Positions 9,512 through 46,558 are shown, counted from the stretch's first letter. The stretch is 52,112 nucleotides of DNA from Patescibacteria group bacterium (GCA_035289165.1 DATDYA010000012.1:1-52112), one strand, 5' to 3'. The notes: generated by a model not told the origin, from the sequence alone. Numbers and translations are program-made.

Positions 9512-9514
9512 AAT

Positions 9515-9902: not shown

Positions 9903-9911
9903 AAAAAATGT

Positions 9912-10559: not shown

Positions 10560-10560
10560 A

Positions 10561-15347: not shown

Positions 15348-15391
<44 letters not shown>

Positions 15392-15440
15392 TGGCGAACA
15401 GCCAAACCCTTGGGAGCTTCTCCACCCCCAGGATGCGATG

Positions 15441-15715: not shown

Positions 15716-15726
15716 AGCCGACATCG

Positions 15727-17397: not shown

Positions 17398-17417
17398 ACC
17401 CGACAAGGAATTTCGCT

Positions 17418-18467: not shown

Positions 18468-18504
<37 letters not shown>

Positions 18505-20525: not shown

Positions 20526-21329
20526 TTAAGAGGACGGAGGAAAATATACTACCGCCTGGGCGTGGATCTTACAGCCGCCATCTTTATCTAAAATACCTAC
20601 TCTACGAATATCACTTATCAATGGATGTGCGTCTTTCTTTTTATTATGGCGCTCGCGTATAATTCTCATTACTTTCGGATCCTTATACAATTCTTCTTCG
20701 AATGTATAAATATTTTGAATATTTTTTTGAGTTTTTTCTGAAACAAGTGCAACCGGCTCCTCATTTTCTCCAACAAAATCTAATGCAACATCTTGTCTTA
20801 TTTTAAGTAAGTATCCATCGGTCAATACAACTGCAGGAAAACGATAATGCCATGCTGTATTGAATGCACGACGAGTAAGACGATACAACTATTCCACTGT
20901 GGACGGAAAAAATACGATACGTAGTCCTTCACCATTTCCCCCATGAATTGCAAAATTCACTTCTTGCTGTGTATAAATCACCGTGCCTGAACTCGGACCG
21001 CCACGTTGAGCAATAATTGCGACAAATGGCAGTCGCATACCGTCTGCCATGCTCATCGCATCTTGCATAAGCACAGTCACTGGTCCCGCGGTGGCAGTAA
21101 ATGCTTTTGTCCCTGCCATGACCGCACCGGCGACCATAAAACCTGCCGCAATTTCGTCTTCAGTTTGTAAATAATGTAGACTCTCATTTTCTTGTGAATG
21201 CCTGATCCAATCAGTTAAAATTTCAGTCCCGGGAGTAATCGGGTATCCAAACATATGTGTAGCTCCTGCGTCTTTACATGCTTGTACAACGACTTCATGG
21301 CCTGTGAGAAATTATTTATTGTGTTTCAT
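20526..21329 (-). pseudogene. decayed paralog of the OFOR alpha subunit (two in-frame stops, C-terminal domain lost)
   Basis: MKHNK*FLTGHEVVVQACKDAGATHMFGYPITPGTEI...AQRGGPSSGTVIYTQQE...STVE*LYRLTRRAFNTAW parallels the intact gene at 10561-11598. There is a TAA at codon 6 and a TAG between track ORFs 20889-21254 and 20526-20888. Similarity fades after about residue 225. Confidence 0.8.
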
Positions 21330-27325: not shown

Positions 27326-27700
27326 TTAACCAGCGAGACGAGAAAAGGCAAAAGTGGAAATGGCGTAAGCGGCCACGGTTATTACTAAACCAATTATTGC
27401 CCCACGCAAAGTGTCTTTAGCCTTCTCCACATGTTGGTCGTTCCCTTGGGCCGTCATCCAACGTATACCGGCATATAAAGCCAAAGCAAAAAATAGGATG
27501 GCGATCAACCCTAGACCAGCACTAATTATGGTGCCAATCAGAGCATACACGTCCCGACCACCATCATAACCAGCGTTTTGACCAGTGGCCGTTAGGCCGT
27601 GGTCATCGCCTTGCGCCGCAACAACGACCGGAATACTTAAAAAGAAAACTAGGGCTAATGAACCCCATTTCTTAATTTTTTCAGGCGATATTTGAAGCAT
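27326..27700 (-). CDS. VirB2/TrbC-like two-TM 'pilin' family protein (paralog P0, solitary)
   Basis: Signal peptide, then LFFALALYAGIRWMTAQGNDQHVEKAKDTLRGAIIGLVITVAAYAI. This is the same core as the array at 29166-34018. Confidence 0.8.
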   Translation of the reverse strand: MLQISPEKIKKWGSLALVFFLSIPVVVAAQGDDHGLTATGQNAGYDGGRDVYALIGTIISAGLGLIAILFFALALYAGIRWMTAQGNDQHVEKAKDTLRGAIIGLVITVAAYAISTFAFSRLAG

Positions 27701-27720
27701 AATGACTTTAAAGCATCTTT

Positions 27721-27749
27721 ATTATACCACATCTTGATTTATCTGTAAA
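27721..27749 (-). promoter_or_regulatory. promoter TTTACA-17 nt-TATAAT with extended -10 (TGTGGTATAAT) for P0
   Basis: Minus-strand sense reads TTTACAgataaatcaagatgtggTATAAT. Confidence 0.55.
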
Positions 27750-27779
27750 AATGCCGTATACTAGCTTTGCTTTTTGAGC

Positions 27780-27851
27780 GGCCCCATCGTTCAATGGATA
27801 GGACACCTCGCTTCTAACGAGGGAATGTGGGTTCGATCCCTGCTGGGGCCA
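27780..27851 (+). tRNA. tRNA-Arg (anticodon TCT)
   Basis: GGCCCCA...CCTCG-CTTCTAA-CGAGG...GGTTCGATCC...TGGGGCCA. The cloverleaf was read by eye. Confidence 0.85.
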
Positions 27852-27870
27852 CGGGGCTAATCCCAATCAT

Positions 27871-27943
27871 GGTGCCTATGGTATAATGGTTATTACGCGA
27901 GATTGTGGCTCTCGCAATACCGGTTCAATTCCGGTTAGGCACC
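27871..27943 (+). tRNA. tRNA-His (anticodon GTG) with an encoded G-1
   Basis: G-GTGCCTA...CGAGA-TTGTGGC-TCTCG...ACCGGTTCAATTCCGGT-TAGGCAC-C. Confidence 0.85.
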
Positions 27944-27950
27944 CCTAAGA

Positions 27951-27975
27951 AACTCCTCCACCCCGGAGGAGTTTT
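27951..27975 (+). terminator. hairpin after the tRNA pair
   Basis: aactcctcc-acccc-ggaggagtt forms a 9-bp stem. The T-run is weak. Confidence 0.5.
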
Positions 27976-28029
27976 ACTTTACTTAAAACGGAAGATAAAC
28001 TACAATTAACGAGTGAGCTAAACACATCT

Positions 28030-29139
28030 ATGTCAAAGGTACTCATCTTATCTCTTAAAGCCGGTACCGGACATCGCATTGCTGGCGAGGCTCTGGAAGA
28101 ATATGGCCAGGCCCATTTCCCAGATTGGGAAGTTAAACATGTCGATGCCACGCCGTACCTTTCGCCGATTTCTTTTTTTTTCCACATCCGATCATATAAC
28201 TTTTTAAGCGCCAACGGTAAATGGCTCTGGAAACTAGCTTACAATTTTTGGGATCGTAAATTCCCAGCTAAATTTCTCCGACAGCTGGCAAAGATTCAAT
28301 CGAGATTAAACCCCCGACTGGTCAAGCTATTAAAACAAGAAAATCCCGACGCGGTTATTTTTACAATCTTGGGCTGTGCCCAAATACTTCTACCGGTGAT
28401 AGAAAAAGAATTCCCTAACCTAAAAACTTTTGCCCTCATTACTGACTACTCTGTACACAATATTAACATCGTACCAGGTGTAAAGTACTATTTTGTTCCT
28501 ACTCCGGAAGCTAAAGAAAAAATTATAAATAACCCCGTGCCGCATGAAGAAGTAACCATTACCGGCATACCAGTCCGCCAGTTATTTTTAACCCAAACCA
28601 AAACTCCAGGACTATATGAAAGATACCATTTTCTCCCCGCCTGGCCCACCGTTGTCTTCCTAACCGGAGGAAACGGCGTGGTTAAAGCCAAAACCTATTT
28701 AAAAGAACTTTTAGATTATCCACACCCTTTAAATTTATTTGTAAACACTGGTAATAACCCGATACTTTTTAAAAATTTAAGAACCTTAAAATTTCCATCT
28801 TGGATAAACTTCCACTTATCAAAATGGACTGACGACCTCCCTTCTCTCTTTTCCATCGCTAACCTTGTCATTACCAAACCCGGTGGGCTAACCGTGACCG
28901 AGGCCCTACACCAAGGCGCTCCACTTTTACTCATCGACCCTATCCCCGGTCAAGAAACTAACAACTTAGACTATTTAGAAAAAAATCACTACGCAGTAGC
29001 TTTAAAAGACCATAAAAAAATCAAAGAATTAGTGGCCGATATAATAAATAAAAAAATTCAACTAGCCGTATTCCCCCAGATAGACAACCCCGCTGAAAAA
29101 ATCTTTAAAGTAATCGAACAAAAATTGGCTCCTAAATAG
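28030..29139 (+). CDS. glycosyltransferase, MGDG-synthase/UgtP/MurG-like (GT28)
   Basis: N-terminal KVLILSLKAGTGHRIAGEAL and C-terminal ITKPGGLTVTEALHQGAPLLLIDPIPGQE. Confidence 0.75.
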   Translation: MSKVLILSLKAGTGHRIAGEALEEYGQAHFPDWEVKHVDATPYLSPISFFFHIRSYNFLSANGKWLWKLAYNFWDRKFPAKFLRQLAKIQSRLNPRLVKLLKQENPDAVIFTILGCAQILLPVIEKEFPNLKTFALITDYSVHNINIVPGVKYYFVPTPEAKEKIINNPVPHEEVTITGIPVRQLFLTQTKTPGLYERYHFLPAWPTVVFLTGGNGVVKAKTYLKELLDYPHPLNLFVNTGNNPILFKNLRTLKFPSWINFHLSKWTDDLPSLFSIANLVITKPGGLTVTEALHQGAPLLLIDPIPGQETNNLDYLEKNHYAVALKDHKKIKELVADIINKKIQLAVFPQIDNPAEKIFKVIEQKLAPK

Positions 29140-29165
29140 GAGCCAATTTTAATCGCCTATGAATT

Positions 29166-29657
29166 TTAATAACAACCTAAATCCTCACAAAAAGGATCGG
29201 GTTGCGGTTCGTAAAAAATACCACTGCTATAATCTGTGTAATTACCTTGCGCGATTCGAAACGCAAACCAAGTAATCGAATAAGCTGACAAAAGAATTAT
29301 GAGGCCGATGATAGAATTCTTAAGTAAACCTTTAGATTTCTCCACTTGCTGATCATTGCCACCAGCGGTCATCCAAAGGTAACCGGCATAAATAATTAAA
29401 ACTACAAAAATAATACCCAAAAGTTGCAAAGCCGAACGAATTATCATTGCCACAATTATCCGCGGATCTTGTGGGTTACCATAGCCAGCGCCCGTTGCAC
29501 CACCCGCCGCATTCAACTGTTTGCCAATCTCCTGCGAAGCAGAGGTATTTTGTTCATTTTTGGCTGTTGGGTCAACATTTTCTTGAGCCAAAAGCTCAAC
29601 TGCTGGGTAGAGCAAGAAGCTGATAAAAACTGAAAAAATAACAATTTTTTTAAACAT
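29166..29657 (-). CDS. VirB2/TrbC-like 'pilin' family protein, paralog P1
   Basis: Signal peptide, core IIFVVLIIYAGYLWMTAGGNDQQVEKSKGLLKNSIIGLIILLSAYSI, and a C-terminal tail ending CEDLGCY. Confidence 0.8.
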   Translation of the reverse strand: MFKKIVIFSVFISFLLYPAVELLAQENVDPTAKNEQNTSASQEIGKQLNAAGGATGAGYGNPQDPRIIVAMIIRSALQLLGIIFVVLIIYAGYLWMTAGGNDQQVEKSKGLLKNSIIGLIILLSAYSITWFAFRIAQGNYTDYSSGIFYEPQPDPFCEDLGCY

Positions 29658-29666
29658 AGTCTAATT

Positions 29667-30143
29667 TTAAGAACCCCAAAACTCCGACCAACTCGAACCA
29701 AATCCTTCGGAAAAGCCTTGCCAAAAACCGCCATCGGCTTCTGGACCGCCAACCTGGCCAGCGCCAGTTGTCGCTACCCCGCCCACTTGCCAAACGATAA
29801 AAGCGGTAATACTATACGCCGCTAAAACTACAATGAGCCCAATTGTCGCTGTCGTAATAATTCCCTTGGCCTTAGTCACTTGTTCGTCTTTACCTTGGGC
29901 CGTCATCCACAAGAAACCAGCATAAACCATAAGGACAAGAAAAATAGTGCCGGTCAAAGACAATACTACCTTGATGTAACGGCCCACTGTTTCGGATAGT
30001 GTAGTATCGGTAACTCCGGCTGTCTCATAGCCACTTTTGTTAGCTACATCTTCAGTCAGAGAATTAATGTTCGGACCAGCCAGAACTGGCTGACTGAAAA
30101 AAAATGTTAGACCGATAATTAAGGTTATAAATAATTTTTCCAT
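29667..30143 (-). CDS. VirB2/TrbC-like 'pilin' family protein, paralog P2
   Basis: Core IFLVLMVYAGFLWMTAQGKDEQVTKAKGIITTATIGLIVVLAAYSI with a G/W/F-rich C-terminal tail. The track start at 30161 is a TTG, so I prefer the ATG at 30143 (MEKLFITL...). Confidence 0.8.
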   Translation of the reverse strand: MEKLFITLIIGLTFFFSQPVLAGPNINSLTEDVANKSGYETAGVTDTTLSETVGRYIKVVLSLTGTIFLVLMVYAGFLWMTAQGKDEQVTKAKGIITTATIGLIVVLAAYSITAFIVWQVGGVATTGAGQVGGPEADGGFWQGFSEGFGSSWSEFWGS

Positions 30144-30157
30144 AGTACTATTAATTT

Positions 30158-30565
30158 TCAAGTATTATCGGGCGTTGTAGTCACGTTGATCCCGTTGCCT
30201 GGATCGCTTGCACCGCCTAGCTTGTTGGTAACAAAATAAGTAATGGCATAAGCCGCCAGAACCACCGCTAAACCAATAATTGCCGCTCGAATGATATCCT
30301 TGGCCTTAGTCACTTGTTCATCTTTACCTTGGGCAGTCATCCACAGTATGCCAGCGTAAATTGTCAAAATAAAAAATATTGTCCCGACCAGAGATAACAC
30401 CGCCTGGATCACAGTGCCCACGCTTGTCGTTAATTCTTTTTCTAAGCCCGAGCTTCCTAAGGCTTTATCTAAATTCTCTCCTGCCCCCTGTAAACCTTGA
30501 GCCTGAACTGGGGAGCTAAAAATTAAAACGCTGACCGCGACCAATAAAATAATAATTTTAGTCAT
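30158..30565 (-). CDS. VirB2/TrbC-like 'pilin' family protein, paralog P3
   Basis: Core IFFILTIYAGILWMTAQGKDEQVTKAKDIIRAAIIGLAVVLAAYAI. Confidence 0.8.
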   Translation of the reverse strand: MTKIIILLVAVSVLIFSSPVQAQGLQGAGENLDKALGSSGLEKELTTSVGTVIQAVLSLVGTIFFILTIYAGILWMTAQGKDEQVTKAKDIIRAAIIGLAVVLAAYAITYFVTNKLGGASDPGNGINVTTTPDNT

Positions 30566-30568
30566 ATT

Positions 30569-31174
30569 TTAATCTAATAAACTAACGCAACAAATATTTT
30601 CTCCACCACCTGGACATAGTGAAGGTACTTGGCGGCTAACACCGCTACCAACATCACAATCCGCCGGCGCCATACAATCACCCTGTTCCCTCACCTCGCA
30701 TTCTGTAAGACACGTGCCATCATTACAAATTTTGTTATCTCCGCAATCTTTCCCGTCCATATCTGCCACCGAACAATCTACGGCCGGCGTCTCGGTAGAA
30801 CCGGCTTCACCATTCACCAGTTTATCAAAAACAAAAGTCGAAATAGCATAAGCCCCAATCACGATTATTAACCCGATTATAGCCGTTTCAATTAAATTCT
30901 TTGCTTTATCCACTTTCCCGGACTCACCCAAAGCAGTCATCCAAAGAATACCAGCATAAAATATCAACCCAAAAAAGACAATTCCCAAAAACGACAGGGC
31001 GACCGAGATTATATTTCCAATCGCTTCAGGAATACTGCTTGCTCCAGCAAATGATTTTGAAAGTCCTCCTGCGTCCGCCGTTGCGCTCACTCCATATTGA
31101 TCCGCTAAAACTAAAACCGGCACCATTACGACTAATAGCACACCGAGCGTAAACAAAATTTTTGTTAATCGCAT
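30569..31174 (-). CDS. VirB2/TrbC-like 'pilin' family protein, paralog P4, with a cysteine-rich C-terminal domain
   Basis: Core VFFGLIFYAGILWMTALGESGKVDKAKNLIETAIIGLIIVIGAYAI. Followed by a tail of about 70 aa containing 12 Cys (CSVADMDGKDCGDNKICNDGTCLTECEV...ICCVSLLD). Confidence 0.8.
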   Translation of the reverse strand: MRLTKILFTLGVLLVVMVPVLVLADQYGVSATADAGGLSKSFAGASSIPEAIGNIISVALSFLGIVFFGLIFYAGILWMTALGESGKVDKAKNLIETAIIGLIIVIGAYAISTFVFDKLVNGEAGSTETPAVDCSVADMDGKDCGDNKICNDGTCLTECEVREQGDCMAPADCDVGSGVSRQVPSLCPGGGENICCVSLLD

Positions 31175-31231
31175 AATTCTTAAGGGAAGATTGAAAACTC
31201 CTTTACTTTCAACCGTCTCCTAAGAGAGTTG

Positions 31232-31289
31232 GGGCGCGCTTGACGCCATGGCAAATGACCGGCCAAGCGCGCCCTTTCTCAAAGAAAGG
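31232..31289 (-). terminator. GC-rich 11-bp-stem hairpin plus a second small hairpin directly after P5 (terminator, attenuator or mRNA-stabilising element)
   Basis: gggcgcgcttg (31232-31242) pairs with caagcgcgccc (31264-31274). An adjacent ccctttc/gaaaggg hairpin follows. No clear T-run. Confidence 0.4.
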
Positions 31290-31293
31290 TGAC

Positions 31294-31725
31294 CTATATT
31301 CCCGGAGCATTGATCGGACCAGTATCCGTAGTTGTAGCTGTAATAATCTGATTAAAGATAAACTGCGTCAAAGCATAAGCCGCGAATATGATAACCAAAC
31401 CAATAATACCAGAATAAATCCATTTCTTGGCTTTCCCGACTTGTTCGTCATTACCACCGGCAGTCATCCAAAGGAAACCACCGTAAATAATAATCACCAC
31501 TGTTACGATACCAAGCAAACCCAAAGCCGCACGAATAATACGAGCAATGGTTATCCGGACATCTTGTGTACCTAAACCGGTGTAAGCACCATATTGCACG
31601 CCTAACTCTGAGGAACCAACATAATCGGTGCTTGTTGCTAGCGCCTCACCCGGCAAAGCCAAAAGTCCTCCTAAAAGCAATGTCCCCATTGCCACGATAC
31701 CTAACATTTTCTTTAATTTCTGCAT
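31294..31725 (-). CDS. VirB2/TrbC-like 'pilin' family protein, paralog P5 (candidate major subunit)
   Basis: Core VTVVIIIYGGFLWMTAGGNDEQVGKAKKWIYSGIIGLVIIFAAYAL. It has the strongest SD in the array (AAGGGGGTGA) and its own promoter-like element. Confidence 0.8.
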   Translation of the reverse strand: MQKLKKMLGIVAMGTLLLGGLLALPGEALATSTDYVGSSELGVQYGAYTGLGTQDVRITIARIIRAALGLLGIVTVVIIIYGGFLWMTAGGNDEQVGKAKKWIYSGIIGLVIIFAAYALTQFIFNQIITATTTDTGPINAPGI

Positions 31726-31767
31726 ATCTTCACCCCCTTTCTGTTGTTAGTTGAATTCATATTCAAA

Positions 31768-31776
31768 ATTATACCA
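31768..31776 (-). promoter_or_regulatory. extended -10 element TGGTATAAT (within gtgTGGTATAAT) upstream of P5
   Basis: Minus-strand sense reads ccaagtgTGgTATAATtttgaatatg...aaagggggtgaagatATG. The same TGTGGTATAAT 11-mer precedes P0. Confidence 0.5.
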
Positions 31777-31783
31777 CACTTGG

Positions 31784-32317
31784 CTATTTTAGACCAGTCA
31801 AATATCCTATAAATGTGTCTAACAATAGATAACTGGAAAAAACTAGTATCACTCCGATCGCTGCCCATAACATCGTCTGTGTGCCACTCTTTACCTTTTC
31901 AGCATTACCAGCTGAAATTAACCACTGGAAACCACCGTAAACAAACATCAATAAAGCCAAGGATCCAATTATCCCCAGCGCGGCCTGAATAATTTTACCC
32001 AATACTTGAGGAACTTCCGTCGGATTTCCGCTTAACGGATTTGTAAGACAAGTATAACCGGTTGGACAAGATCCTCCACTTTTAGTGGCGGGGGGCGTAG
32101 AAGTGGCTTTTTCAACCACAGACGCGCAATCACCGTCTATTGGACCCGTGCATCCCCCAGGACATTGTACGGGGGCACCACTATCTGGTTTATCAAAAGA
32201 CTCACAACTATAAGCACACTGACAGTGATATTTCTCTGCCCCAAAAGCCGGATCTGCTAAAAATATGAACCAGGATAAGCCTGCGATTAACGTTAAAAAA
32301 ATAATCACTTTTTTCAT
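31784..32317 (-). CDS. VirB2/TrbC-like 'pilin' family protein, paralog P6, with a cysteine-rich N-terminal ectodomain
   Basis: Signal peptide, then YHCQCAYSCESF...CPGGCTGPIDGDC...CPTGYTC. Divergent core LLMFVYGGFQWLISAGNAEKVKSGTQTMLWAAIGVILVFSSYLL. Confidence 0.75.
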   Translation of the reverse strand: MKKVIIFLTLIAGLSWFIFLADPAFGAEKYHCQCAYSCESFDKPDSGAPVQCPGGCTGPIDGDCASVVEKATSTPPATKSGGSCPTGYTCLTNPLSGNPTEVPQVLGKIIQAALGIIGSLALLMFVYGGFQWLISAGNAEKVKSGTQTMLWAAIGVILVFSSYLLLDTFIGYLTGLK

Positions 32318-32320
32318 AGA

Positions 32321-33331
32321 CTATGCCACTGATTTGAAAATAAAATCTACCAACACATAACTCCCGAGCATCACTATTACTCCAAGCGTTGCCCAAATCA
32401 AAATATTTTTAGCTTTGTCTACCTGCCCAGAATTACCGGCCGAGGTCATCCACAATAAGCCAGAATAAATATACAAAGCCAAGGCAATTGAACCTACAAA
32501 ACCAATAAGTAATTTGATAGCACGGCCGATTAGATTTATCACGCCTGATTCATCCGCGCTTAAACTGAGCGGATTTAGACTCTTCGCGCTCGACTTTACG
32601 TTTTCCATGCTTAAACCAATTGCTTTTTCTTCGGTTTTGCCAAGGTCCGCCTCAGTATAACTGGATCCACAGGTAGCATCGGCGCTTTTAAGATCGGCCA
32701 CTGTTTTTAGTTCTTCCCCAGCAGAACAGGTTGCCTCACTTTCTTTGTTCTGTTTTTCCACACCACATTCGTGTACGATCAGGCCTTCGTCATCACCAAC
32801 CTTCTTGCAACAACAATAATTTAATATCTTCTGAGTTTCGCTTTGACAATTACCTTCTTCTACATATGTGACTCCTGCGCCAGCCTCCACAATCTCTTGA
32901 ACCGTCGTTAGACGCATACAATCTTTTGTAACTGTAGAATTTAAGGGGTTCTCCGTAATAACACACAAACAAGGCTCATAAATTTTCATTATGCATTGTC
33001 TTACGTTGGGATAACCGGGGTTGATTCTAATTCTCCCAGATGGTCCAGTACAGCCGGTTCCATCTAGTTCAACCCTTGGGATACTAGACCAACCAACGCC
33101 AGCTTCTCCGCTTTGAATTTGAGTATATTCGTTTCTGTCGCCTACATTAAATTTTCTCCAGCTTGACCCTGAACCCGTACTTAACTCGCACCAACACCCA
33201 GTATTATTTTGATTAGAAAAACTAGCCTGGAGATAATTTTCCAATTCCCCAGCCGAGACAGGGGTAATCTCAAATAAAAACACTAAAACTCCTATTGCTA
33301 AACTACATTTTCCCCACCAGTTTATTTTCAT
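32321..33331 (-). CDS. VirB2/TrbC-like 'pilin' family protein, paralog P7, with a cysteine-rich ectodomain of about 250 aa
   Basis: Signal peptide, CWCELS..., many Cys (CLCVITENP, NYCCCKKVG, HECGVEK, ATCSAGE). C-terminal core LALYIYSGLLWMTSAGNSGQVDKAKNILIWATLGVIVMLGSYVL. Confidence 0.75.
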   Translation of the reverse strand: MKINWWGKCSLAIGVLVFLFEITPVSAGELENYLQASFSNQNNTGCWCELSTGSGSSWRKFNVGDRNEYTQIQSGEAGVGWSSIPRVELDGTGCTGPSGRIRINPGYPNVRQCIMKIYEPCLCVITENPLNSTVTKDCMRLTTVQEIVEAGAGVTYVEEGNCQSETQKILNYCCCKKVGDDEGLIVHECGVEKQNKESEATCSAGEELKTVADLKSADATCGSSYTEADLGKTEEKAIGLSMENVKSSAKSLNPLSLSADESGVINLIGRAIKLLIGFVGSIALALYIYSGLLWMTSAGNSGQVDKAKNILIWATLGVIVMLGSYVLVDFIFKSVA

Positions 33332-33337
33332 AGTAAC

Positions 33338-34018
33338 TTATAATCTAAACCCACTTTGTACCCCAATAGTCTCGGCTAAAAATCCAATTAAAATGTAAGC
33401 ACCAAAGGCAATTACAAGACCTGTTACTGCCGCCACCATGGCTCCTGTCCCTTTTTTAACCTGTTCAGAATTACCACGCGACAAGATCATAACAAATCCG
33501 CCATAGATGAACATAACCAAAGCTATGGCACCAATAATTCCGAACAACCACCGGCCCAGATTAATTAAGGTAATTACAAAAATTGAAATATCCCGACATT
33601 CTGGGGTTAAGGTATCCTCTAACACACAGGGTGGTAGAATCGCCCCTGCATCTTTTGAACTATCAAACTGCTGGTGATATTCAGAAATAGGATTGTATTT
33701 AGTACGAAACTGCTCATCCCACAAATCTTTCTGGGCGTTACAAGTACTCTGATCCATGGTGTAACAAAGATACATGTCTGTAGTCTTATCAAAATTCTCG
33801 GGGGTACACTGGTCTTTGCTATCAACTGGAGTGCAAATCGAAGAACCTTCTGCATCCTTATAATTTTCGAGAGTCAGTTTTTCCATGTTTGCCGAACAAA
33901 AACAATAAGTGGCTTCGGCGAGTATCGGACCACCTTGGGTTTCCACCGACTGGGGTAAGAAAAAAAACAAAACAAACAGAATTCCAGAAAAAATTATTCG
34001 TACCAAATATTTTTTCAT
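33338..34018 (-). CDS. VirB2/TrbC-like 'pilin' family protein, paralog P8, with a cysteine-rich N-terminal ectodomain
   Basis: Signal peptide, YCFCSAN..., 10 Cys. Divergent core LVMFIYGGFVMILSRGNSEQVKKGTGAMVAAVTGLVIAFGAYIL. Confidence 0.7.
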   Translation of the reverse strand: MKKYLVRIIFSGILFVLFFFLPQSVETQGGPILAEATYCFCSANMEKLTLENYKDAEGSSICTPVDSKDQCTPENFDKTTDMYLCYTMDQSTCNAQKDLWDEQFRTKYNPISEYHQQFDSSKDAGAILPPCVLEDTLTPECRDISIFVITLINLGRWLFGIIGAIALVMFIYGGFVMILSRGNSEQVKKGTGAMVAAVTGLVIAFGAYILIGFLAETIGVQSGFRL

Positions 34019-34021
34019 ATC

Positions 34022-35407
34022 TTACAATGTTTGATTAACCTTTGTCGCTCCCCGATTTAAAACATTCTGCTTCAACTGCATAACCTTATCGTTGTCAAAC
34101 GGTACGGCGTTCCATTCATCCACCATATCTTGGATTGCCTTAAGGGCCGCCTCATAATTCCGACCACGATACCAGTTTTCAGCTACCAAAACTTGAGAAA
34201 TAAACGGCGCTAATTCAATTTTATCTTTTTGTTCATTAATTAAAGCCCGTAAAGCCGTTGGCCGCTTACTTAAATCTAAATACTCTTTGACCAATTTAGT
34301 ATAAGTCAAAGAATTAACCAGGTTCCAGGCTTCGTTCTGGTTCTTCGACTTCGCGACTACCGTCTGAATCCAGTAATTGGCGACGTTCACCGGCTGCTCA
34401 TTATTAAGTTGCAACATCGACATTACCTCAAAATTCAACTGCGGCGCTCGAGCTTTTATGAGAGGATAATGGTAACTATAACCAAAGAAAAAACCAGCCT
34501 TGCCTTGCACAAAACTGTCGAAGGCGTTACCCAAATCCTTGTTCCAGGAATAGGTGTCACGAGCTGGGTTAGAAAAATCCGTATAAAAATTCATCACATT
34601 CATCGCCGGACTTATGTCATTGTTACGCGGGGCGTAATTAAACACGGCTTGGCCGCTTCGCGCCACAAAATCCACATTGCTTTGGCGGTAAAGCACATAC
34701 AAAATGTCATCAACACCCGGGACATTTTCACCGCTTCCGATGGCCACACCAGACTGGGTAACTTTTCCGCTCGTCCGGTCATATTTGGTTACCTTTTTAA
34801 CCGCCGCCTGAAATTCTTCCCAGGTCTTGGGCGGCTCGGCCACACCAGCCCGATCAAGAATATCTTTGTTATAATAAATAGCCAGAGCATCCAAAGATAA
34901 TGGCAAGCCGTACACTCTCCCCTCAACGACCACGTCGCTTTTCACCGTTTGTACAAAGTTTCTTTCAATATCCAAAACTGTCGGCAACGCGTAATCACGT
35001 GAATTGATTTTTGTTTCCGTGCTAAACTGATTTTTAATAATCTGCACCGTGGTATCCCGGGCCCCTTCCGGCATGGGTGCTAATTTACTTTGAAAAGTTT
35101 TTACCCAACGATTACGAATCGAAATAATGTCTGGTCCCCGATCTTCGGCTAGAGCCTCAACTAAACGAGGATACAACTCCTCCAACCTTAACTGACGAAC
35201 GTTAACTGTAATATGTGGTCGGTCGATCCGCCATTTAGCAATCGTAGCATTTAGGGCGTCGACGTCATCAAAAACAGTCCAATATTCCAAGGTAACCGGC
35301 TGAATCGCCTGCTGTTCTTTTTTCGACAACCCTTTACAACCAAATCCGGTAAATACCAAAAAACTCATGACGAAAATGAGTGTCAGTATGCTTGCTTTCT
35401 TAAGCAT
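34022..35407 (-). CDS. lipoprotein, ABC-type extracellular solute-binding protein (sugar-type); no permease or ATPase genes nearby
   Basis: Lipobox LVFTGFGC. The size of 461 aa and W/Y-rich periplasmic-binding-protein-like sequence fit this family. Confidence 0.75.
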   Translation of the reverse strand: MLKKASILTLIFVMSFLVFTGFGCKGLSKKEQQAIQPVTLEYWTVFDDVDALNATIAKWRIDRPHITVNVRQLRLEELYPRLVEALAEDRGPDIISIRNRWVKTFQSKLAPMPEGARDTTVQIIKNQFSTETKINSRDYALPTVLDIERNFVQTVKSDVVVEGRVYGLPLSLDALAIYYNKDILDRAGVAEPPKTWEEFQAAVKKVTKYDRTSGKVTQSGVAIGSGENVPGVDDILYVLYRQSNVDFVARSGQAVFNYAPRNNDISPAMNVMNFYTDFSNPARDTYSWNKDLGNAFDSFVQGKAGFFFGYSYHYPLIKARAPQLNFEVMSMLQLNNEQPVNVANYWIQTVVAKSKNQNEAWNLVNSLTYTKLVKEYLDLSKRPTALRALINEQKDKIELAPFISQVLVAENWYRGRNYEAALKAIQDMVDEWNAVPFDNDKVMQLKQNVLNRGATKVNQTL

Positions 35408-36392: not shown

Positions 36393-37787
36393 TTAATTTA
36401 CTACTTCCACCTCTTCCCAGCTAATGAGGTTGTATTCTGACCCAACTGGGAAACCGGGTGGTGGGTTATACGTCAAATTAACATCATAATTAGAATTCGT
36501 TATTTCATAGCCCGAGACTACTTGTCCGCCCCCTGATACCCAACTCCAGGTCCAAACACCAAAAGTGATAACCGAACCAAACGTCGTCAAACTTTCTTTA
36601 GTGTCTCCCGAATAAAAATACCGTTTCGTTGCCCCCGACTTGGCCAAAAGAGCTCCGTCTATTTCTAAATAATCTGGCGAGTTGTGTGGAATCAAAACAT
36701 CTTTTTCCCCAATCAAACCCAAAACATGATTACCATCTTTCGCCAAGTAAGTAATATTCCCATTAATTATTATTGATTCACCGGAAGCCGTTCCAATCGT
36801 TGCCCGACCATTAACTACCCCATCCACCCAAACTGTATCTTCAACATAAATATACCCATTAGCCGGTACTGGATAAGTAGTTGGTGAATTAGTCGTACGA
36901 ATGTCTATGCAATAAGTATGAAATTTATTTTCACCAGTATCCTTCCCCGAATAACAATAGGTCCGGGTTACCTTATACACCTTAATTGTCCCATCAGCTT
37001 GAAAACTCAATCGCCAACCCTCGTCACCAGAAGAAGTTAAATAAAGTCCGCCACCTTCATCGGCCCCCTCTTTAATCTCTGCCAATTTAGCCGTAACCGC
37101 CGTAAAATCTTTCGCCGGTACTGGATATCGCCAATATTCTTGCGGCCCACCCACACCCCAAATCCCTTCCTGGGTTTGATTACCACAACCATGGAATTCT
37201 TTACAAGTATAAGTGGCCATGGCGCTCGTTATCGGCGCATCACCTAAACCATCATAGCGAATTCCGCCATTAGCGTGAAATTTACCGTGCGTATATTCAG
37301 TATCGCCAATCCAGACATCGGTATTAGTCAAAAAAGCATAGTCAGTCAGAGCCGGAAAGCCAACCCGCGCTCGGAGTTTTCGTTTACTATCCAGTTGGGC
37401 GTCTAACCAGCCTGTAGATTCAATAGTTACAACCGTTGACCCAGAAAGTGGCGGAGTAATATCTAAAGAATAATGTCCAATAACATTTCCGTCTTTATCT
37501 TCATAAGCATGGACGTAGGGACCGGGGACCCCGGTGCCATCTTGGTAATCCGTTTTATTATGCGCCAAATGCCACCGATAATAATTAATCCCTGCTTCGG
37601 CAATCTGAAAAGCCATCTCTCGATTATGTTTAAAATTCGATGCCCGATTTTCCATAATCGCGTAGCTCACTATACCGGTAACGATGATCGTAAAGGCAAT
37701 CGAACCCAACACCAAAACTGAAATCAAAGCCTGCCCGCGGTGATCGTGGTAAAAATTTTGTAATAACTTTTTCAAATTTATTAACAC
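36393..37787 (-). CDS. pilus-associated protein with a PilX-N-like N-terminus (minor pilin/tip candidate)
   Basis: GQALISVLVLGSIAFTIIVTGIVSYAI...AFQIAEAGINYY resembles the PilX N-terminal domain. GTG start lies 1 nt after the upstream stop. Large beta-rich C-terminus. Confidence 0.5.
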   Translation of the reverse strand: MLINLKKLLQNFYHDHRGQALISVLVLGSIAFTIIVTGIVSYAIMENRASNFKHNREMAFQIAEAGINYYRWHLAHNKTDYQDGTGVPGPYVHAYEDKDGNVIGHYSLDITPPLSGSTVVTIESTGWLDAQLDSKRKLRARVGFPALTDYAFLTNTDVWIGDTEYTHGKFHANGGIRYDGLGDAPITSAMATYTCKEFHGCGNQTQEGIWGVGGPQEYWRYPVPAKDFTAVTAKLAEIKEGADEGGGLYLTSSGDEGWRLSFQADGTIKVYKVTRTYCYSGKDTGENKFHTYCIDIRTTNSPTTYPVPANGYIYVEDTVWVDGVVNGRATIGTASGESIIINGNITYLAKDGNHVLGLIGEKDVLIPHNSPDYLEIDGALLAKSGATKRYFYSGDTKESLTTFGSVITFGVWTWSWVSGGGQVVSGYEITNSNYDVNLTYNPPPGFPVGSEYNLISWEEVEVVN

Positions 37788-37788
37788 A

Positions 37789-38406
37789 TTAATTAGTCTT
37801 TAAATTCCTAATTTCCACTTTGGATTCAATCGAAAATGGCACGGGTGTATTATTTGGATCTTCCTCCAACATTAGATTGATTTTAATCAAACGAATTTGT
37901 GTTGCGTCAATCGGTAGAACCATCGGGGTTCCGGTGGCAAAAGAAAAACCTTCGTTATAATAAGTAAAAACCGGGTTCTCCCCATTGGCGACATCATGAA
38001 CAATGTCTACTACGGTCTCAGTCGCCTGACTATATACCAAAGGATTACCGCTGGGCTTAATAACGCCTTTTTTTAAGGTCGCACCCGCCAAAAAGTAACG
38101 CACCTTTTCACGATAGTTATCGGTATCAAGATTGGTATAAAAAATAATTGAACTGGTCGCGGCCGATTCAATCGGATAGGCCCCTAAACTAGAATAATTC
38201 GTTTTACGAATTTCATTGGTAAAATCATGGACAATTTTTCGACCCTCATTTTGTGTCGACAATTGTTCCCAAATAACATCTCGTGAGTGGTTACTAAATA
38301 AGAACAACGACACGGCGCCTTCTACCAACAAAAGCATACCCGCCATCGCCACTAAAGCTTCGAGTATTGTAAACCCTTGGTAATTGTATTTTAAATTTTT
38401 CATCAT
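37789..38406 (-). CDS. type IV pilin-like protein (prepilin-type N-terminal cleavage/methylation motif)
   Basis: MMKNLKYNYQG|FTILEALVAMAGMLLLV. ATGA overlap with the upstream gene. Confidence 0.7.
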   Translation of the reverse strand: MMKNLKYNYQGFTILEALVAMAGMLLLVEGAVSLFLFSNHSRDVIWEQLSTQNEGRKIVHDFTNEIRKTNYSSLGAYPIESAATSSIIFYTNLDTDNYREKVRYFLAGATLKKGVIKPSGNPLVYSQATETVVDIVHDVANGENPVFTYYNEGFSFATGTPMVLPIDATQIRLIKINLMLEEDPNNTPVPFSIESKVEIRNLKTN

Positions 38407-40220
38407 TCTTCTAGAGACATGTCTATCATGACATCACTCTGGCCACTGACCTCTATGATCCCAGTATATGGAGCATACCCACTCCGGCTAACTTCAATAT
38501 TATAGACTGTGGCCGACAGACTGTTAAAAAAAGCCTGGCCCGGTGGTAGACAGGCATTAGTAAACGTAAAGGCCAATTCAGATAAAATAGAGGTATAATC
38601 TTGGTTAGCAGTAGACAAAAAGACTTTGTAGCGCAAATAACGATTACCGTCGTGAATCGGGTTAATTACTGTGTCGACTAGATTATAATAAGTTCCGGCT
38701 GTACCATCCGGTCCAATATAATCCCAACTCGCAGGGGTACTCGAATTAGTGGTGGCAATCTGAAAACGAATTGAGGAGGCACCTGTTTCTACAGGCTGAC
38801 TCAAAGGCTCAAAAATAATATTGCGAAAATCCACACTACCGCCCAGGTCAAAAGTGGACGATTCTAAAATACCGCTTGGCACATAATCCCCGCCCGTCCG
38901 TTTTAGGGTTAAACTCCCGACCGGTGAATCGTTGTCTACCCCACTATCATCACTAAAGTATTTATCCAGAGTAATATATTCGTCTTGCCCGCTACCACCT
39001 GACCAATCGGTTTGGCGTGTATAACCCAAATCAGTGGTTTCGGTTTGGTCATAAGTACCATCATACAAACGAATCGTGGCCGAAGATAACGGCAGACTCG
39101 TACCAGCATCTTTCACTTTTACTAATAAAGAATTCGTTGTGTGGGGACGCAAGATAACACTCATTTCTTGGTTTTGACCTGGTTCAATATTTACCGGTAA
39201 CATGGGGATCGAACCGGCGACATCATAAGTTGTAAGTAAAGGCGACAAATAATATTTATCCCATTCAATCGTCGGGAAAGAATAATCTCCACCGCCATCA
39301 GTCGTAAAATCTTCATCCAGCTTATAAACATTTGGTTCAATGCCAAGTAACTTTTCCGTACCATGCAGATTCAATCCCACGCCCCCAATCGGGACACAGC
39401 TTGGCCCCATCGTGTGGAGATTCAAACTACCCAGGCGATCAATAGAAAAATAAATTTCTGTCACCATCTGGCTCGCGACGTTAGCTGGTAGCTTTACAGG
39501 GGTGGGTACCTCCGGGCTGGGAGATAATGTGTAATCAGAAGAATAGCCTTCTTTACTAGCTGTAATCTGGTACCCCATCGTGCTTGTTGGAACATCCACT
39601 AACTTTAGCCAACCGTCATTGTCCGTAGTCTCAGTTAAATCAATCACTGGATTAACGCTATTATTTACTACGTGGACATTAGCACCAACAACCGCTAAAC
39701 CGTTTTTATCAAATACTTGAATAAATAACGCACCGTTGTCGCTAGCGCCCTCCAAATTACGAGGGCCAATAATCGTACTTAAAATTACTGGCGTCTGTTG
39801 ACGACAAGAATCACAAATAATAGAAAATTCTACCAACTTGTAATCCGCTGGTGAAAGATCGTTCGGGTTGCCACCGATTGTGCCATCATAATTATCGTCA
39901 AAATTACGGACTGTGGCCGTGATGGTAAACGGCATGTTATTCCGTGTCACATTTTGCGTGCGCGGGATCTCTCCGGGCGGCACGCCGTTCACAATTCCAA
40001 TCTTGTCATAAACCATATTTCTTACTGTTTCAACCTGCTCGGCCAATACCGATGTCTCAACAATCTTCAATCTCGACTGGTAAACAATTTTAAAAACCAT
40101 GTTAATTGCCCCGTAAACCCCAACGACGAATAACAAAAATACCCCGGCGGCAACAATAACCTCCACGAGTGTTATGCCTCGTGAATTAAGTTTAAAAAAA
40201 TATCCCCCTGATTTGTTCAT
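38403..40220 (-). CDS. large (605 aa) type IV pilin-like protein with a prepilin-type N-terminus
   Basis: MNKSGGYFFKLNSRG|ITLVEVIVAAGVFLLFVVG, followed by a long Ig-like/carboxypeptidase-regulatory-like beta-rich region (VHVVNNSV..., IRLYDGTYDQTETTD...). Confidence 0.7.
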   Translation of the reverse strand: MNKSGGYFFKLNSRGITLVEVIVAAGVFLLFVVGVYGAINMVFKIVYQSRLKIVETSVLAEQVETVRNMVYDKIGIVNGVPPGEIPRTQNVTRNNMPFTITATVRNFDDNYDGTIGGNPNDLSPADYKLVEFSIICDSCRQQTPVILSTIIGPRNLEGASDNGALFIQVFDKNGLAVVGANVHVVNNSVNPVIDLTETTDNDGWLKLVDVPTSTMGYQITASKEGYSSDYTLSPSPEVPTPVKLPANVASQMVTEIYFSIDRLGSLNLHTMGPSCVPIGGVGLNLHGTEKLLGIEPNVYKLDEDFTTDGGGDYSFPTIEWDKYYLSPLLTTYDVAGSIPMLPVNIEPGQNQEMSVILRPHTTNSLLVKVKDAGTSLPLSSATIRLYDGTYDQTETTDLGYTRQTDWSGGSGQDEYITLDKYFSDDSGVDNDSPVGSLTLKRTGGDYVPSGILESSTFDLGGSVDFRNIIFEPLSQPVETGASSIRFQIATTNSSTPASWDYIGPDGTAGTYYNLVDTVINPIHDGNRYLRYKVFLSTANQDYTSILSELAFTFTNACLPPGQAFFNSLSATVYNIEVSRSGYAPYTGIIEVSGQSDVMIDMSLEE

Positions 40221-43075: not shown

Positions 43076-46000
43076 TTAGCTACAACCAGTAGTACTACCA
43101 CAGTTAAGACATTTATAACAACTGCCATTGCGAATCGTAATATGCCCGCAAGTTGGACAGGGTGGCGCGTCCCCCATCATTCCAGAGAGTTGTTTATCTA
43201 TAGCCTCGCCATCAATTTTCTCTTCAGTAATACTTGGCAAAACTGGTTGCTCATCGGTCGCCACTTCGGGAAGTTTATCACCTACTGTTTCCACTTTGTC
43301 CCCCAAAGGCATCGCCTTTTGCTCAACATTCGCTAGCGCCGCCATGTGTTCGGCCCGGTTCTTTTGAATACCAGTTGGTTTGACCTGAACGAAATCTGTC
43401 CGGCCAAGATACTCCATACCAAGTACCCGGAAGACGAAATCAACAATCGAAGTGGAAAATTTAATATTCGGATGGTCAGCCATACCGCTTGGTTCAAAAC
43501 GGGTGAAGGTAAATTTTTCAACATATTCTTCCAGGGGAACGCCGTATTGTAAACCCGTAGAAATAGAGATGGCGAATAGATTCAAAAGACTACGGAAAGA
43601 AGCTCCCTCTTTATACATATCAATAAACACCTCACCCAAACGGCCATCCGGATATTCACCAGTACGAAGGAATATTTTTTGTCCGCCCACTTTCGCCTTA
43701 ATCGTTAACCCGCTTCGCTTATATGGCATCTTACGTTGTTCACCATGAATGTAGATCTTTGTTCCTTGGCTTGTGCCATCGTGGGCATACTTCACCTGGG
43801 CATTTTCACTAGATACGGCTTGCTGGATGTCGCCGTTCTCTCCACTAAATAAAACGTAGTTATGTCCAACCGGCGCCTTAACTTCTGGTGTTTTAATTGG
43901 AGTCTTGTCTTCAACAACTTCTTTCTTTTCTTCCTTTGCTTCGGCTTTTTCTTGGCCACTATCTTTACTCTTTGAAGAAAGCGGCTGGGATAATTTACAA
44001 CCATCGCGATAAATAGCAATCGCTTTCAATCCTAATTTCCAGGAAGCAACATAGGCAATTTTTACATCCTCAATCGTCGCCTCGTTCGCCATGTTAATAG
44101 TTTTTGAAATTGCTCCAGATAAGAAAGGTTGAACAGCAGCCATCATGCGGATATGGCCTAGATAATGGATATATCTTTGACCTTTTTTACCATTTTTGTT
44201 AGCGGTATCGAAAACAGCATAATGTTCCTTTCGTAAATGAGGGGCGCCTTCAATTGTCATTGCTCCGCAAACATATTCATTCGCTAGATTTATTTCATCA
44301 TTAGTAAATCCAAGAGCAGTGAGCAAATTAAAGTTAGGATCATTATATTGTTCGCTGGTAAACCCAAGTCGCTTTAGAGTATCTTCTCCAAAAGTCCAGA
44401 CATTAAAGGCAAACTGTAATTCAAATACTGACACTAATCCTTTCTCCAACTTAGTAATATCTTCATGAGTAAATCCCTTGGCCTTCAAAGCCTCGTGGCT
44501 TAAAGCCGGAGAACCTCTTAGGGTACCATGGCCCTTCAAATATTTAACAACGTCTTCTACTTCTTTACTATTGTAACCTAAAGTCTTCAAGGCAGTTGGC
44601 ACCGCTTCGTTTACAATTTTAAAATAACCGCCGCCGGCTAATTTCTTAAATTTAACTAACGCAAAATCTGGTTCCACACCCGTTGTTGCACAATCCATTA
44701 ACAATCCAATGGTGCCAGTCGGCGCCAACAAGGTTGTCTGGGCGTTTCTAAAACCATATTTTTCCCCCATTGCCAAAGCTTCGTTCCAAGCCTCGCGGGC
44801 CGCGGCTAATAAATATGCTGGGGCATATTCTGGACTAATCGGCATTGGTCTAACAGCCAACTCCTCATACTCTTCTTCCGGCGCGCTAAAAGCGGCGCGT
44901 CGATGATTTCTAATAACTCGTAACATTGCCTCGCGGTTCAAATTATACTTGGGGAACGGACTAATGGCACGGGCGATCTCGGCCGAAGTCTCGTATGACT
45001 CGGCCGTCATGAGCGCCGTAACACTACCAGCAAAAGCCAGAGCCTCGGGAGAATCATAAGGAATACCGGCGGTCATGAGAACACTGCCAATATTAGCATA
45101 GCCCAAACCTAAAGTACGGAAGTCATAACTATTTTGAGCAATTTCCGCGCTTGGATATTGCGCCATTAAAACGCTAATTTCTAAAACTAGAGTCCAAATA
45201 CGCGTTGTTTGTTTAAATCCATCAATGTCAAAGGTGGCGGTTTCCGAATCATAATAATGAGCGAGATTAATCGAGGCAAGATTACAAGCAGTGTCGTCTA
45301 GGAACATATACTCTGAACACGGATTCGAACCATTAATCTTCCCCGAATTAGGACAGGTATGCCACTCATTAATAGTGGTATCAAATTGGACGCCTGGGTC
45401 AGCACAAGTCCAAGCTGCACTCGTTATCTTGTCCCATAAATATCTAGCCTTTAATTTTTTCATCTCTTTACCATCAGTCCGAGAAAGTAAAGACCAGCCG
45501 TTATCATTCTCCACTGACTCCAAATACTGTTGGGAAACACGTACAGAATTGTTAGAATTTTGCCCGGAAACTGTTTGGTAGGCCTCACCCTCATAAGCGG
45601 ATTCATAACCGGCTGCTAACAAAGCCGCCACCTTCTTTTCTTCTCCTACTTTCCAGTCAATAAATTCTTCAATATCCGGGTGATCGATGTTTAAAATAAC
45701 CATCTTGGCGGCGCGACGTGTAGTACCGCCAGATTTAATTGCGCCAGCGGCTCGATCGCCAATTTTCAACCAACTCATAAGACCAGATGAACGACCACCG
45801 CCCGAGAGTTTTTCATTTTTCCCCCGTAAACTGGAAAAATTAGTACCTGTCCCGCTACCATATTTAAACAATCGCGCTTCTCGTACCCACAAATCCATAA
45901 TACCACCTTCGTTAACCAAATCATCTTTTACTGACTGAATAAAACAAGCATGCGGTTGCGGATGAGTATAAGAATCTTGAGAGCGCGTCAGTACTCCAGT

Positions 46001-46558
46001 ATCCGGATCAACATAATGGTGACCTTGAGCCGGGCCATTAATTCCATAGGCCCAATACAAACCAGTGTTAAACCATTGTGGAGAATTTGGCGCCACCATT
46101 TGGTTTATAAGCATGTACGCCAATTCTTCATAAAAAATCTGAGCGTCTTTGGCACTAGCAAAATATCCATACTTTTCTCCCCAATAACGCCAAGTACCAG
46201 CCAAACGGTGGGCGACTTGTTTCATGCTTTTTTCTGGACCCAGTTCTGGCGAGCCATCTTCTTTTAATTTAGGTGTCCCGTCTTCCTTATATTGCGGCAC
46301 CCCAGCCTTCCGAAAGTATTTTTGCGCCAAAATATCCGTCGCTACCTGTGACCACTGCTTCGGCACCTCGACATCGTCCATTTGGAATATGACCTTACCA
46401 CTAGTTTCCCGAATAACCGAAGAACGCAGTTCGTATTCGAACATATCAAACGGGCTAACGCCTTCTTTAGTGTATTGTCTTTCAAACTTTAAACCTTCTT
46501 CAGAATAAAGAAAGCTAGAATCAACCTCATAGGTACGAGTAGCCGTTTGTGTTTTCAT
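43076..46558 (-). CDS. nrdJ: adenosylcobalamin-dependent (class II) ribonucleotide reductase
   Basis: Long class II RNR-type sequence ([41 protein letters not shown]) with a C-terminal Cys-rich tail CPTCGH...[14 protein letters not shown]. Confidence 0.9.
   Translation of the reverse strand: [1160 protein letters not shown]

Follow-up and report, generated by a model that had tools for sequence, protein, structure and literature searches.

In type IV secretion systems (T4SS), canonical VirB2-type pilins are about 65-75 amino acids (aa) long when mature, often trimmed or cyclized, free of passenger domains and encoded together with VirB3-VirB11. Their inter-helix loop is cytoplasmic, and the two termini are positioned outside the cell. 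In conjugative pili of solved structure, the loop between the helices is turned toward the lumen (PMC12037004). Patescibacteria frequently carry arrays of pilin genes, which are essential in Southlakia (PMC12102498, PMC10633639, PMC12857230); a survey of 3,035 genomes recorded 441 VirB2-like arrays of 2-11 genes and reported homologues of PrgB to be absent from Patescibacteria (PMC12102498). Such an array is present in the window analyzed here, a stretch of 52,112 nucleotides (nt) from a Patescibacteria group bacterium (GCA_035289165.1 DATDYA010000012.1:1-52112). It comprises nine paralogs of the family PF18895 (T4SS_pilin), designated P0 to P8, at positions 27326-34018 on the minus strand. 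P4, P6, P7 and P8 depart from the small single-domain form of canonical pilins by cysteine-rich extensions of 76-238 aa, which may be surface-binding domains carried on minor subunits of a T4SS pilus.

The pilin module itself was recognizable in all nine proteins. The PF18895 gathering score of 26.6 bits was passed by seven of them (29.6-45 bits), namely P0 (27326-27700, 124 aa, 34.7 bits), P1 (29166-29657, 163 aa with a short C-terminal extension, 35.4 bits), P6 (31784-32317, 177 aa, 44.4 bits), P8 (33338-34018, 226 aa, 38.4 bits) and the plain paralogs P2 (29667-30161, 29.6 bits), P3 (30158-30565, 37.2 bits) and P5 (31294-31725, 143 aa, 45 bits). P4 (30569-31174, 201 aa; 23.7 bits, E 5e-5) and P7 (32321-33331, 336 aa; 21.3 bits, E 2.9e-4) remained slightly under this score, yet both can be aligned to the other paralogs, and precomputed PF18895 matches exist for homologues retrieved together with P7 (P0007-P0009) and P4 (P0048-P0049). 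Sub-threshold matches were obtained to the TrbC/VirB2 family PF04956 for P5 and P6 (P6 E 1.4e-4) and, in NCBIfam, to the pilin-like family NF045849 of a Mycoplasma integrative and conjugative element. According to hydropathy segments, each of the nine combines an N-terminal signal peptide with two long hydrophobic helices, and the paralog alignment shows that these are joined by a short, positively charged loop with the conserved motif xGN(D/S)EQVxKAK. AlphaFold2 models of P8 and P4, with a mean predicted local distance difference test score (pLDDT) of 70-72 (P8 71.8), place the helices of the hairpin at residues 139-179 and 184-218 in P8 and at residues 47-80 and 85-120 in P4. The third-ranked Foldseek match was 8dfu, the Aeropyrum conjugation pilus, which at a TM-score of 0.68 on the target and an E-value of 2.3 is a weak and non-significant match, and a profile search of PDB sequences yielded no match. 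On the basis of profile and architecture, P0-P8 are assigned to the VirB2 family.

The extensions differ in position and size. In P6, P7 and P8 the extension is N-terminal and, measured from the end of the hydrophobic core of the signal peptide to the start of the module, comprises 76, 238 and 117 aa, respectively, whereas P4 carries a C-terminal tail of 81 aa. P8 consists of a Sec-type signal peptide, an ectodomain with eight cysteines that opens with YCFC (about residues 34-140, nt 33599-33919) and the PF18895 hairpin (residues 141-219, nt 33362-33598). In P7 the signal peptide, which contains one further cysteine, is followed by an ectodomain with 14 cysteines and the motifs GCWC, CLC and CCC (about residues 28-261, nt 32549-33250), an LNP-containing linker and the hairpin (residues 262-335, nt 32327-32548). 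The ectodomain of P6 (about residues 27-99, nt 32021-32239) begins with KYHCQC, harbors eight cysteines and precedes the hairpin at residues 100-175 (nt 31793-32020). P4 has its hairpin directly behind the signal peptide (residues 46-120, nt 30815-31039), and the tail (nt 30572-30814) contains ten cysteines and terminates in a six-cysteine unit, C-x7-C-x5-C-x13-C-x7-CC. P1 possesses only two cysteines in a C-terminal loop, CEDLGCY (nt 29169-29189); the terminus FCEDLGCY is identical in the related loci L001 and L002. All cysteine counts in extensions are even, and P0, P2, P3 and P5 lack cysteines altogether. A preliminary description of this DNA had assigned cysteine-rich ectodomains of about 90, 250 and 140 aa to P6, P7 and P8 and a tail of about 70 aa with 12 cysteines to P4. 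The extensions and their cysteine-rich nature were recovered, as were the motifs YHCQC, GCWCE and YCFCS and the end of P1 given there, but the lengths and the cysteine number of the tail had to be corrected to the values above.

The window is a chromosomal piece of Patescibacteria, which belong to the candidate phyla radiation (CPR), of Magasanikbacteria type, and the syntenic loci belong to metagenome-assembled genomes named Candidatus Magasanikbacteria or Magasanikiibacteriota. The region of P4 and P6-P8 forms the upstream half of a conserved nine-gene array, whose gene-by-gene synteny extends to L001 (GCA_964511375.1), L006 and L003 (GCA_023246655.1), with equal lengths and cysteine counts position by position. 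The common order is a solute-binding protein (SBP) lipoprotein gene, the P8-, P7-, P6-, P5-, P4-, P3-, P2- and P1-like genes, a glycosyltransferase gene, the P0-like gene and the genes for ribosomal protein S15, an NYN protein and PNPase. P0 is kept apart from the other paralogs by two tRNA genes and by an opposite-strand gene for a glycosyltransferase resembling monogalactosyldiacylglycerol synthase, and this outlying position is retained in L001 and L003.

The cysteine frameworks are conserved well beyond the surrounding residues. P7 is 47% identical to its full-length homologue P0002, in which all 14 ectodomain cysteines are kept and 30% of the other residues there are identical. Seven of the eight cysteines of P8 are invariant in ten orthologs of 36-49% identity, and in the full-length homologues, of which there are at least nine in this identity range, the C-x-C motif comes straight after the signal peptide. 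In P4, all ten cysteines are retained by four orthologs at 21-32% identity of the remaining residues, and more distant homologues retain the minimal six-cysteine unit; the L001 ortholog of P6 keeps all eight. A random cysteine pattern, which the preliminary description had named as an argument against its reading, was thus not observed.

The same description had considered that the long open reading frames (ORFs) might be fusions caused by a missed stop codon or a frameshift, to which misassembly can be added. Only the unusual length for the family, and a start of P7 and P8 that some gene callers place 16 codons further downstream, speak for such an annotation artefact. P4, P6, P7 and P8 are uninterrupted minus-strand reading frames with the boundaries that had been given for them at the outset. 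Equal architectures and lengths are found at equal array positions in independent assemblies, P0002 spans P7 from end to end, 58 distinct P8-type fusions exist (see below), and only the longer ATG starts provide P7 and P8 with a proper signal peptide. Since fusions of this kind are present in dozens of independent assemblies, frameshifts and missed stops do not account for it, and the probability of an artefact is negligible.

The ectodomains were also analyzed for their relationships to each other and to known domains. A shared origin of the P6, P7 and P8 ectodomains was rejected, because profile-profile comparison with hhalign gave probabilities below 1%; the claim that different cysteine-rich domains are attached to one type of pilin module was therefore borne out. 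None of the four extensions matched Pfam, even when submitted alone at E-values up to 10, and nothing significant was found for them in NCBIfam or among PDB sequences. In the model of P8 the ectodomain is a three-stranded sheet with helices, followed by the two-helix hairpin, and C-x-C is located on the first strand; the tail of P4 is modeled as small and beta-rich with a pLDDT of 64-77. The structure search proposed earlier was performed with Foldseek for the whole P8 and P4 models against PDB and BFVD. It returned nothing significant, with the limitation that whole-protein queries are dominated by the hairpin and that small domains are poorly sampled.

A profile of the P8 ectodomain alone matched 65 of 1.84 billion representative proteins, of which 61 were new, and in 58 of these new matches the pilin module directly follows the P8-type domain. 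One of the 58, P0119, harbors a second, partial P8-type match C-terminal to the module. Of the three exceptions, two are possibly fragments, with a length of 111 and 178 aa, whereas the third is a protein of 1,386 aa matched through a short repeated stretch and is probably spurious. This fusion frequency indicates that the P8-type domain is an obligate partner of the pilin hairpin.

To place the extensions in a wider context, a hidden Markov model of the hairpin module was built from the nine paralogs and searched against all ORFs of 81 non-redundant sources, comprising the window and 80 loci. These loci were fetched via the P8 family and each was thus chosen for a P8-like gene, while the remaining approximately 500 pilins are unselected. 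The census yielded 586 proteins in which a signal peptide and the pilin module are combined, the median number per locus being nine. At least four cysteines were present in 139 of 144 N-terminal extensions of at least 60 aa and in 98 of 101 C-terminal extensions of at least 50 aa. The cysteine fraction is 6.8% in long extensions, 0.84% in other ORFs of at least 200 aa and 0.11% in pilin modules. Extensions were found at the N- or the C-terminus but in no case in the loop, and the module including its loop is nearly free of cysteine. The number of extension cysteines is even in 330 of the 341 proteins that have any, and for whole mature proteins even counts outnumber odd ones by 320 to 37. Even numbers of cysteines restricted to the ends that face outward are expected of intramolecular disulfides. 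Disulfide stabilization of the extensions, as proposed in the preliminary description, is therefore strongly implied by cysteine parity, by the conserved frameworks and by the confinement to the predicted outward termini.

Two recurrent cysteine patterns were found in the census. The first cysteine opens a C-x-C motif in 70 of 149 cysteine-rich N-terminal extensions, compared to 9.5 +/- 3 in shuffled sequences, and in 36 of 115 after removal of P8-like proteins. The unit C-x5-10-C-x3-9-C-x8-17-C-x5-12-CC is present in one to three tandem copies in 26 C-terminal tails, with about one expected from shuffles, and in no N-terminal extension. In L003 the pilin at the P3 position (7603-8346) carries a C-terminal tail of 124 aa with two tandem six-cysteine units, whereas P3 of the window is plain. 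This indicates that grafts are gained and lost at individual positions of the array.

The cysteine-rich parts might also be cargo rather than permanent domains, that is, be cleaved off and released as a secreted peptide (a toxin, bacteriocin, defensin-like or host-directed signaling peptide) or be removed as a pro-domain before assembly. Canonical TrbC, VirB2 and TrhA pilins are processed at both ends (PMC12037004), and a potential junction motif exists. LNP(L/A/M) recurs 5-10 residues before the module in long N-terminal extensions (residues 250-262 in P7 and 91-99 in P6) and could act as a hinge or a processing site. However, an NP dipeptide no more than 32 aa upstream of the module occurs not only in 49% of long N-terminal extensions but also in 16% of short pilins, and no protease gene accompanies the array. 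The spacing of the tandem C-terminal six-cysteine unit resembles that of beta-defensins, which would suit a released peptide, but this identity lacks profile support and was rejected: the best match of Defensin_beta (PF00711) to isolated tails had an E-value of 0.98 and 9.9 bits at a gathering score of 21. There was likewise no match to a toxin or bacteriocin family, and no defensin was among the Foldseek matches of a search dominated by the helical hairpin. Furthermore, the P8-type domain is never free of a pilin module among full-length matches. Cleavage and release of the cysteine-rich part is consequently considered unlikely.

Pilin modules and extensions evolve at very different rates. 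Compared to L006 and L001, the hairpin modules of all paralogs are 79-100% identical, with 89-100% for P2 and P3 and 95-99% for P5. In contrast, the extension of P8 shows only 21-29% identity and the tail of P4 35-42%. P6 is less diverged, its extension being 71% (L006) and 58% (L001) identical at 86% and 79% identity of the module, whereas the extension of P7 is not alignable (3-10% identity) next to a module of 85-90%. The cysteine-free extensions of P2 and P5 and the two-cysteine extension of P1 are mostly 73-97% identical. This contrast is also visible in the DNA. In blastn the window is continuous with its closest relative L006 at 76-87% identity save for two gaps, which have no detectable similarity to L006. 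The first (33605-34000) takes in the ectodomain of P8 (about codons 7-138), and the second (32531-33358) covers the signal peptide, ectodomain and linker of P7 (about codons 1-267). The non-synonymous rate (dN) is 0.5-0.85 in cysteine-rich extensions and 0.04-0.11 in their modules, a difference of 5-15-fold, with the synonymous rate (dS) saturated. Among three closer pairs of loci the pooled dN/dS is 0.13-0.38 in cysteine-rich extensions and 0.06-0.25 in modules, and the least diverged pair, L039/L037 (dS about 0.2-0.3), yields 0.38 and 0.06, respectively. Positive selection was not accepted as an explanation, with dN/dS of the extensions below 1 and dS saturated against the relatives of the window. 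These data show strong purifying selection on the pilin scaffold, whereas the grafts keep only their cysteine framework and otherwise change fast between species.

The strongest divergence was found in the P7 slot, the gene beside the P8-like gene, where the extensions fall into at least ten BLAST clusters across the 80 loci. The head type of P7 in the window (GCWC..., CCCK) is unlike that of its closest relatives ([DYN]CC[LIV]Y..., KCCxP). Compared to the type-B ectodomain of L001 and L006, only the membrane-proximal approximately 80 columns and the LNP linker are alike (hhalign probability 35%), and composition-corrected BLAST against distant loci revealed likeness to the window's P7 head in the proximal half only. 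A clean cassette swap at P7 was rejected because of this proximal-half likeness and because L001 and L006, which share one head type, are themselves only 26% identical in the P7 head. The latter value also makes replacement and extreme divergence inseparable. At the level of these alignments, the domain in the P7 slot has been either replaced or diverged beyond recognition.

Such divergence might be produced on the fly, for instance by a diversity-generating retroelement (DGR), and components of one, a reverse transcriptase, bAvd and a pair of template repeat (TR) and variable repeat (VR), are located at and past the window's right end, some 17 kb from the pilins. The TR matches only the 3' end of an adjacent gene of 586 aa, however, and has no more than chance 12-15-mers in common with the pilin genes. 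When independent assemblies of this organism are compared, P7 shows a single residue difference and mature P8 shows none, which places the variation between lineages and not within the population. Programmed hypervariation was hence discarded as highly improbable. The DGR itself extends from 51378-51905 of the window (minus strand) outward and corresponds to L088 11291-14770. The ORF in the window is the C-terminal part of a reverse transcriptase of 333 aa, and a bAvd gene and a TR/VR pair of 113 nt with 87% identity are present, with the TR at L088 12690-12802 and the VR at the 3' end of the 586-aa gene, which has no Pfam match.

If the topology of VirB2 applies to this family, the hairpin loop would face the cytoplasm and, once the subunit is part of a pilus, the lumen, and both termini would be located outside the cell and on the outer face of the pilus. 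A terminus predicted to face outward is extended by a lineage-specific domain, N-terminal in P6, P7 and P8 and C-terminal in P4, which intramolecular disulfides would hold together. The pilus would then be built mainly from the plain paralogs P0, P2, P3 and P5 by a T4SS encoded elsewhere, with the extended paralogs as minor subunits, probably at the tip or sparsely along the shaft. Their grafts could serve as surface-exposed binding modules for contact with a host cell or substrate and would supply the cell-contact or adhesin function, no separate adhesin having been found in Patescibacteria T4SS. We estimate a probability of roughly 55% that the extensions are disulfide-stabilized surface-binding domains on minor T4SS pilin subunits and as such the T4SS counterpart of modular type IV pilins. 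The further proposal that the cysteine-rich heads are the host-recognition and adhesion determinants of the T4SS pilus, and that diverging or exchanged heads set which host can be attached to, is tentative.

Several observations weigh against a role in a T4SS pilus. Genes for VirB3, VirB4, VirB6, VirD4, TrsD or a relaxase were not detected, either among the scanned ORFs of the window (110 aa or longer) or in the 10 kb that follow its right end, and a crude Walker-A screen of the 10-kb flanks of related arrays detected FtsK-like ATPases only. With no T4SS gene nearby, the connection to such a system is based on membership in the family and on the literature on other Patescibacteria, in which pilins are located away from virB4 in about 40% of assemblies (PMC12102498). 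A thiol-disulfide oxidoreductase, for which the preliminary description had proposed to look, was absent as well: Dsb, VKOR and thioredoxin were not found in the same window ORFs and right flank. The extensions resemble no known adhesin or lectin fold in the Pfam, NCBIfam, PDB and Foldseek searches, and with a mean dN/dS below 1 gene-wide diversifying selection is not demonstrated. A helical fiber of VirB2 type would hardly accommodate a domain of 117-238 aa on each subunit, so the extended pilins could be minor subunits at most. To our knowledge, no patescibacterial T4SS pilus has been visualized.

Alternatively, the extended proteins may never polymerize, the hairpin having been co-opted as a signal-peptide-dependent bitopic anchor for disulfide-rich surface domains, independently of a T4SS. 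The domains might in that case be receptors, binding proteins or envelope-structuring proteins. All of the sequence evidence, from topology and cysteine parity to fast evolution, fits this possibility just as well, and the steric problem of large domains in a VirB2 fiber is avoided. The array is located among housekeeping genes and away from T4SS machinery; the window also holds the genes for PNPase, ribosomal protein S15, class II ribonucleotide reductase, RuvB, tRNAs and 5S rRNA. Moreover, an SBP_bac_1 lipoprotein gene with a lipobox-like GFGC (34022-35407, minus strand) ends 3 nt before the start of P8, and a homologue is present beside the pilin array in 75 of 80 loci. However, the module is conserved to the same degree in the extended paralogs (79-95% identity to close relatives) and in the plain ones, and both sorts stay interleaved in one array, which suggests a common constraint imposed by assembly and not simple anchoring. 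The pilin array of Southlakia, in addition, belongs to an essential T4SS cluster (PMC10633639). Anchoring without polymerization is therefore regarded as possible but doubtful, and incorporation of the extended paralogs into a pilus as minor subunits is the preferred interpretation.

The SBP gene may be co-transcribed with P8, P7 and P6. It has no adjacent ABC permease gene in the window. A promoter and terminator scan was uninformative, with terminator-like sites at chance level. A GalU-like gene is also located immediately upstream of the array and is found near the array in 62 of the 80 loci. ORFs of 750-785 aa with Walker-A motifs near related arrays, which had been taken as candidates for VirB4, are FtsK. 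Further upstream, three consecutive genes on the minus strand (36393-40220) encode products of 605, 205 and 464 aa. The 605-aa product, which carries a CarboxypepD_reg domain, and the 205-aa product possess N-termini like those of type IV prepilins (G|ITLVE and G|FTILE; 37789-40220), and the 464-aa product looks PilX-like. Homologues of these three genes are present near the array in 38-41 of the 80 related loci, showing that minor pilins of type IV pili and T4SS-type pilins are neighbors here.

Other features of the window lie at greater distance from the array. The minus-strand region 14588-19671 contains a 23S rRNA gene with group I introns at 17424-17609 and 15080-15344, followed by the 5S rRNA gene; the second intron is positioned past the end of the reported 23S match, an ORF for a LAGLIDADG endonuclease is found at 15896-16507, and no 16S gene adjoins the 23S gene. 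Two abutting minus-strand ORFs at 20526-21254 (20889-21254 and 20526-20888) match consecutive parts of POR_N of pyruvate:ferredoxin oxidoreductase and may represent a split gene or pseudogene; a second, intact gene set for this enzyme is located at 9026-11598. The class II ribonucleotide reductase (43076-46558, minus strand) comprises 1,160 aa, with its barrel matched in two stretches and a TSCPD domain. This length suggests an insertion such as an intein.

The grafted pilins provide concrete candidates for the host-contact surface of Patescibacteria T4SS. Southlakia is the one genetically tractable patescibacterium, in which the T4SS genes and the pilin array are essential to epibiotic life. 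For T4SS structural biology and for the engineering of pilus display it is of importance that VirB2-type pilins appear to tolerate large grafts at either terminus. Through the extensions, the catalogue of CPR surface proteins furthermore gains several lineage-specific domain families that have cysteine frameworks and no known fold. If the heads do determine host recognition, T4SS pilins would be a second, independent pilin superfamily with module grafting, and the heads would offer a sequence-readable marker of host range for uncultivated CPR bacteria. If, on the other hand, the grafts are only membrane-anchored, the array documents the re-use of a pilin hairpin as a general surface anchor.

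The closest known counterpart is the array SEML1_0006-0019 of Southlakia epibionticum, which likewise consists of tandem divergent PF18895 paralogs on the chromosome of a monoderm, ultra-small host. The Southlakia pilins are located in a T4SS cluster, however, whereas the array of the window has no T4SS gene within 52 kb. Published pilins of Patescibacteria are small and structurally conserved (PMC12102498, PMC10633639, PMC12857230), but four of the nine paralogs described here possess disulfide-rich extensions of 76-238 aa. A full-text literature search found no description of cysteine-rich pilin fusions and the papers on Patescibacteria T4SS are silent on them, in agreement with the novelty claimed in the preliminary description. 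The pilin array is thus a known feature, but as far as could be checked no description exists of the cysteine-rich grafts, of their restriction to the outward termini or of their fast evolution.

With VirB2, TrbC, TraA and TrhA (PF04956 and relatives) the nine proteins share the signal peptide, the helix-loop-helix hairpin, the positively charged loop and an expected topology with both termini outside. The extended termini are incompatible with the head-to-tail cyclization known from this group. In the modular type IV pilins PilB (von Willebrand factor A domain) and PilC (lectin) of Streptococcus sanguinis, the module-bearing protein is thought to be an adhesive minor subunit at the tip (PMC8179133), as in the model proposed here. 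Those pilins belong to an unrelated superfamily that is assembled by type IV pilus machinery and has an N-terminal alpha-1 helix behind a signal peptide of class III, whereas P4, P6, P7 and P8 combine a Sec-type signal peptide and an AxA-like cleavage site with a VirB2-type hairpin and modules without a database signature. Lacking a class III signal peptide, they fall outside the type IV pilin superfamily. The tip protein VirB5 of Gram-negative and the PrgB-type adhesins of Gram-positive T4SS share the proposed role in contact, but both are separate proteins and not pilin fusions, and they show no similarity in sequence or fold. Finally, the amplified VirB2 paralogs of Bartonella and Anaplasma are surface-exposed and thought to diversify the interaction with the host, according to the reports cited in PMC12102498. 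In those accounts the variation resides in the small pilin itself, whereas in the array described here the pilin module is conserved and variation is found only in the appended cysteine-rich domains.

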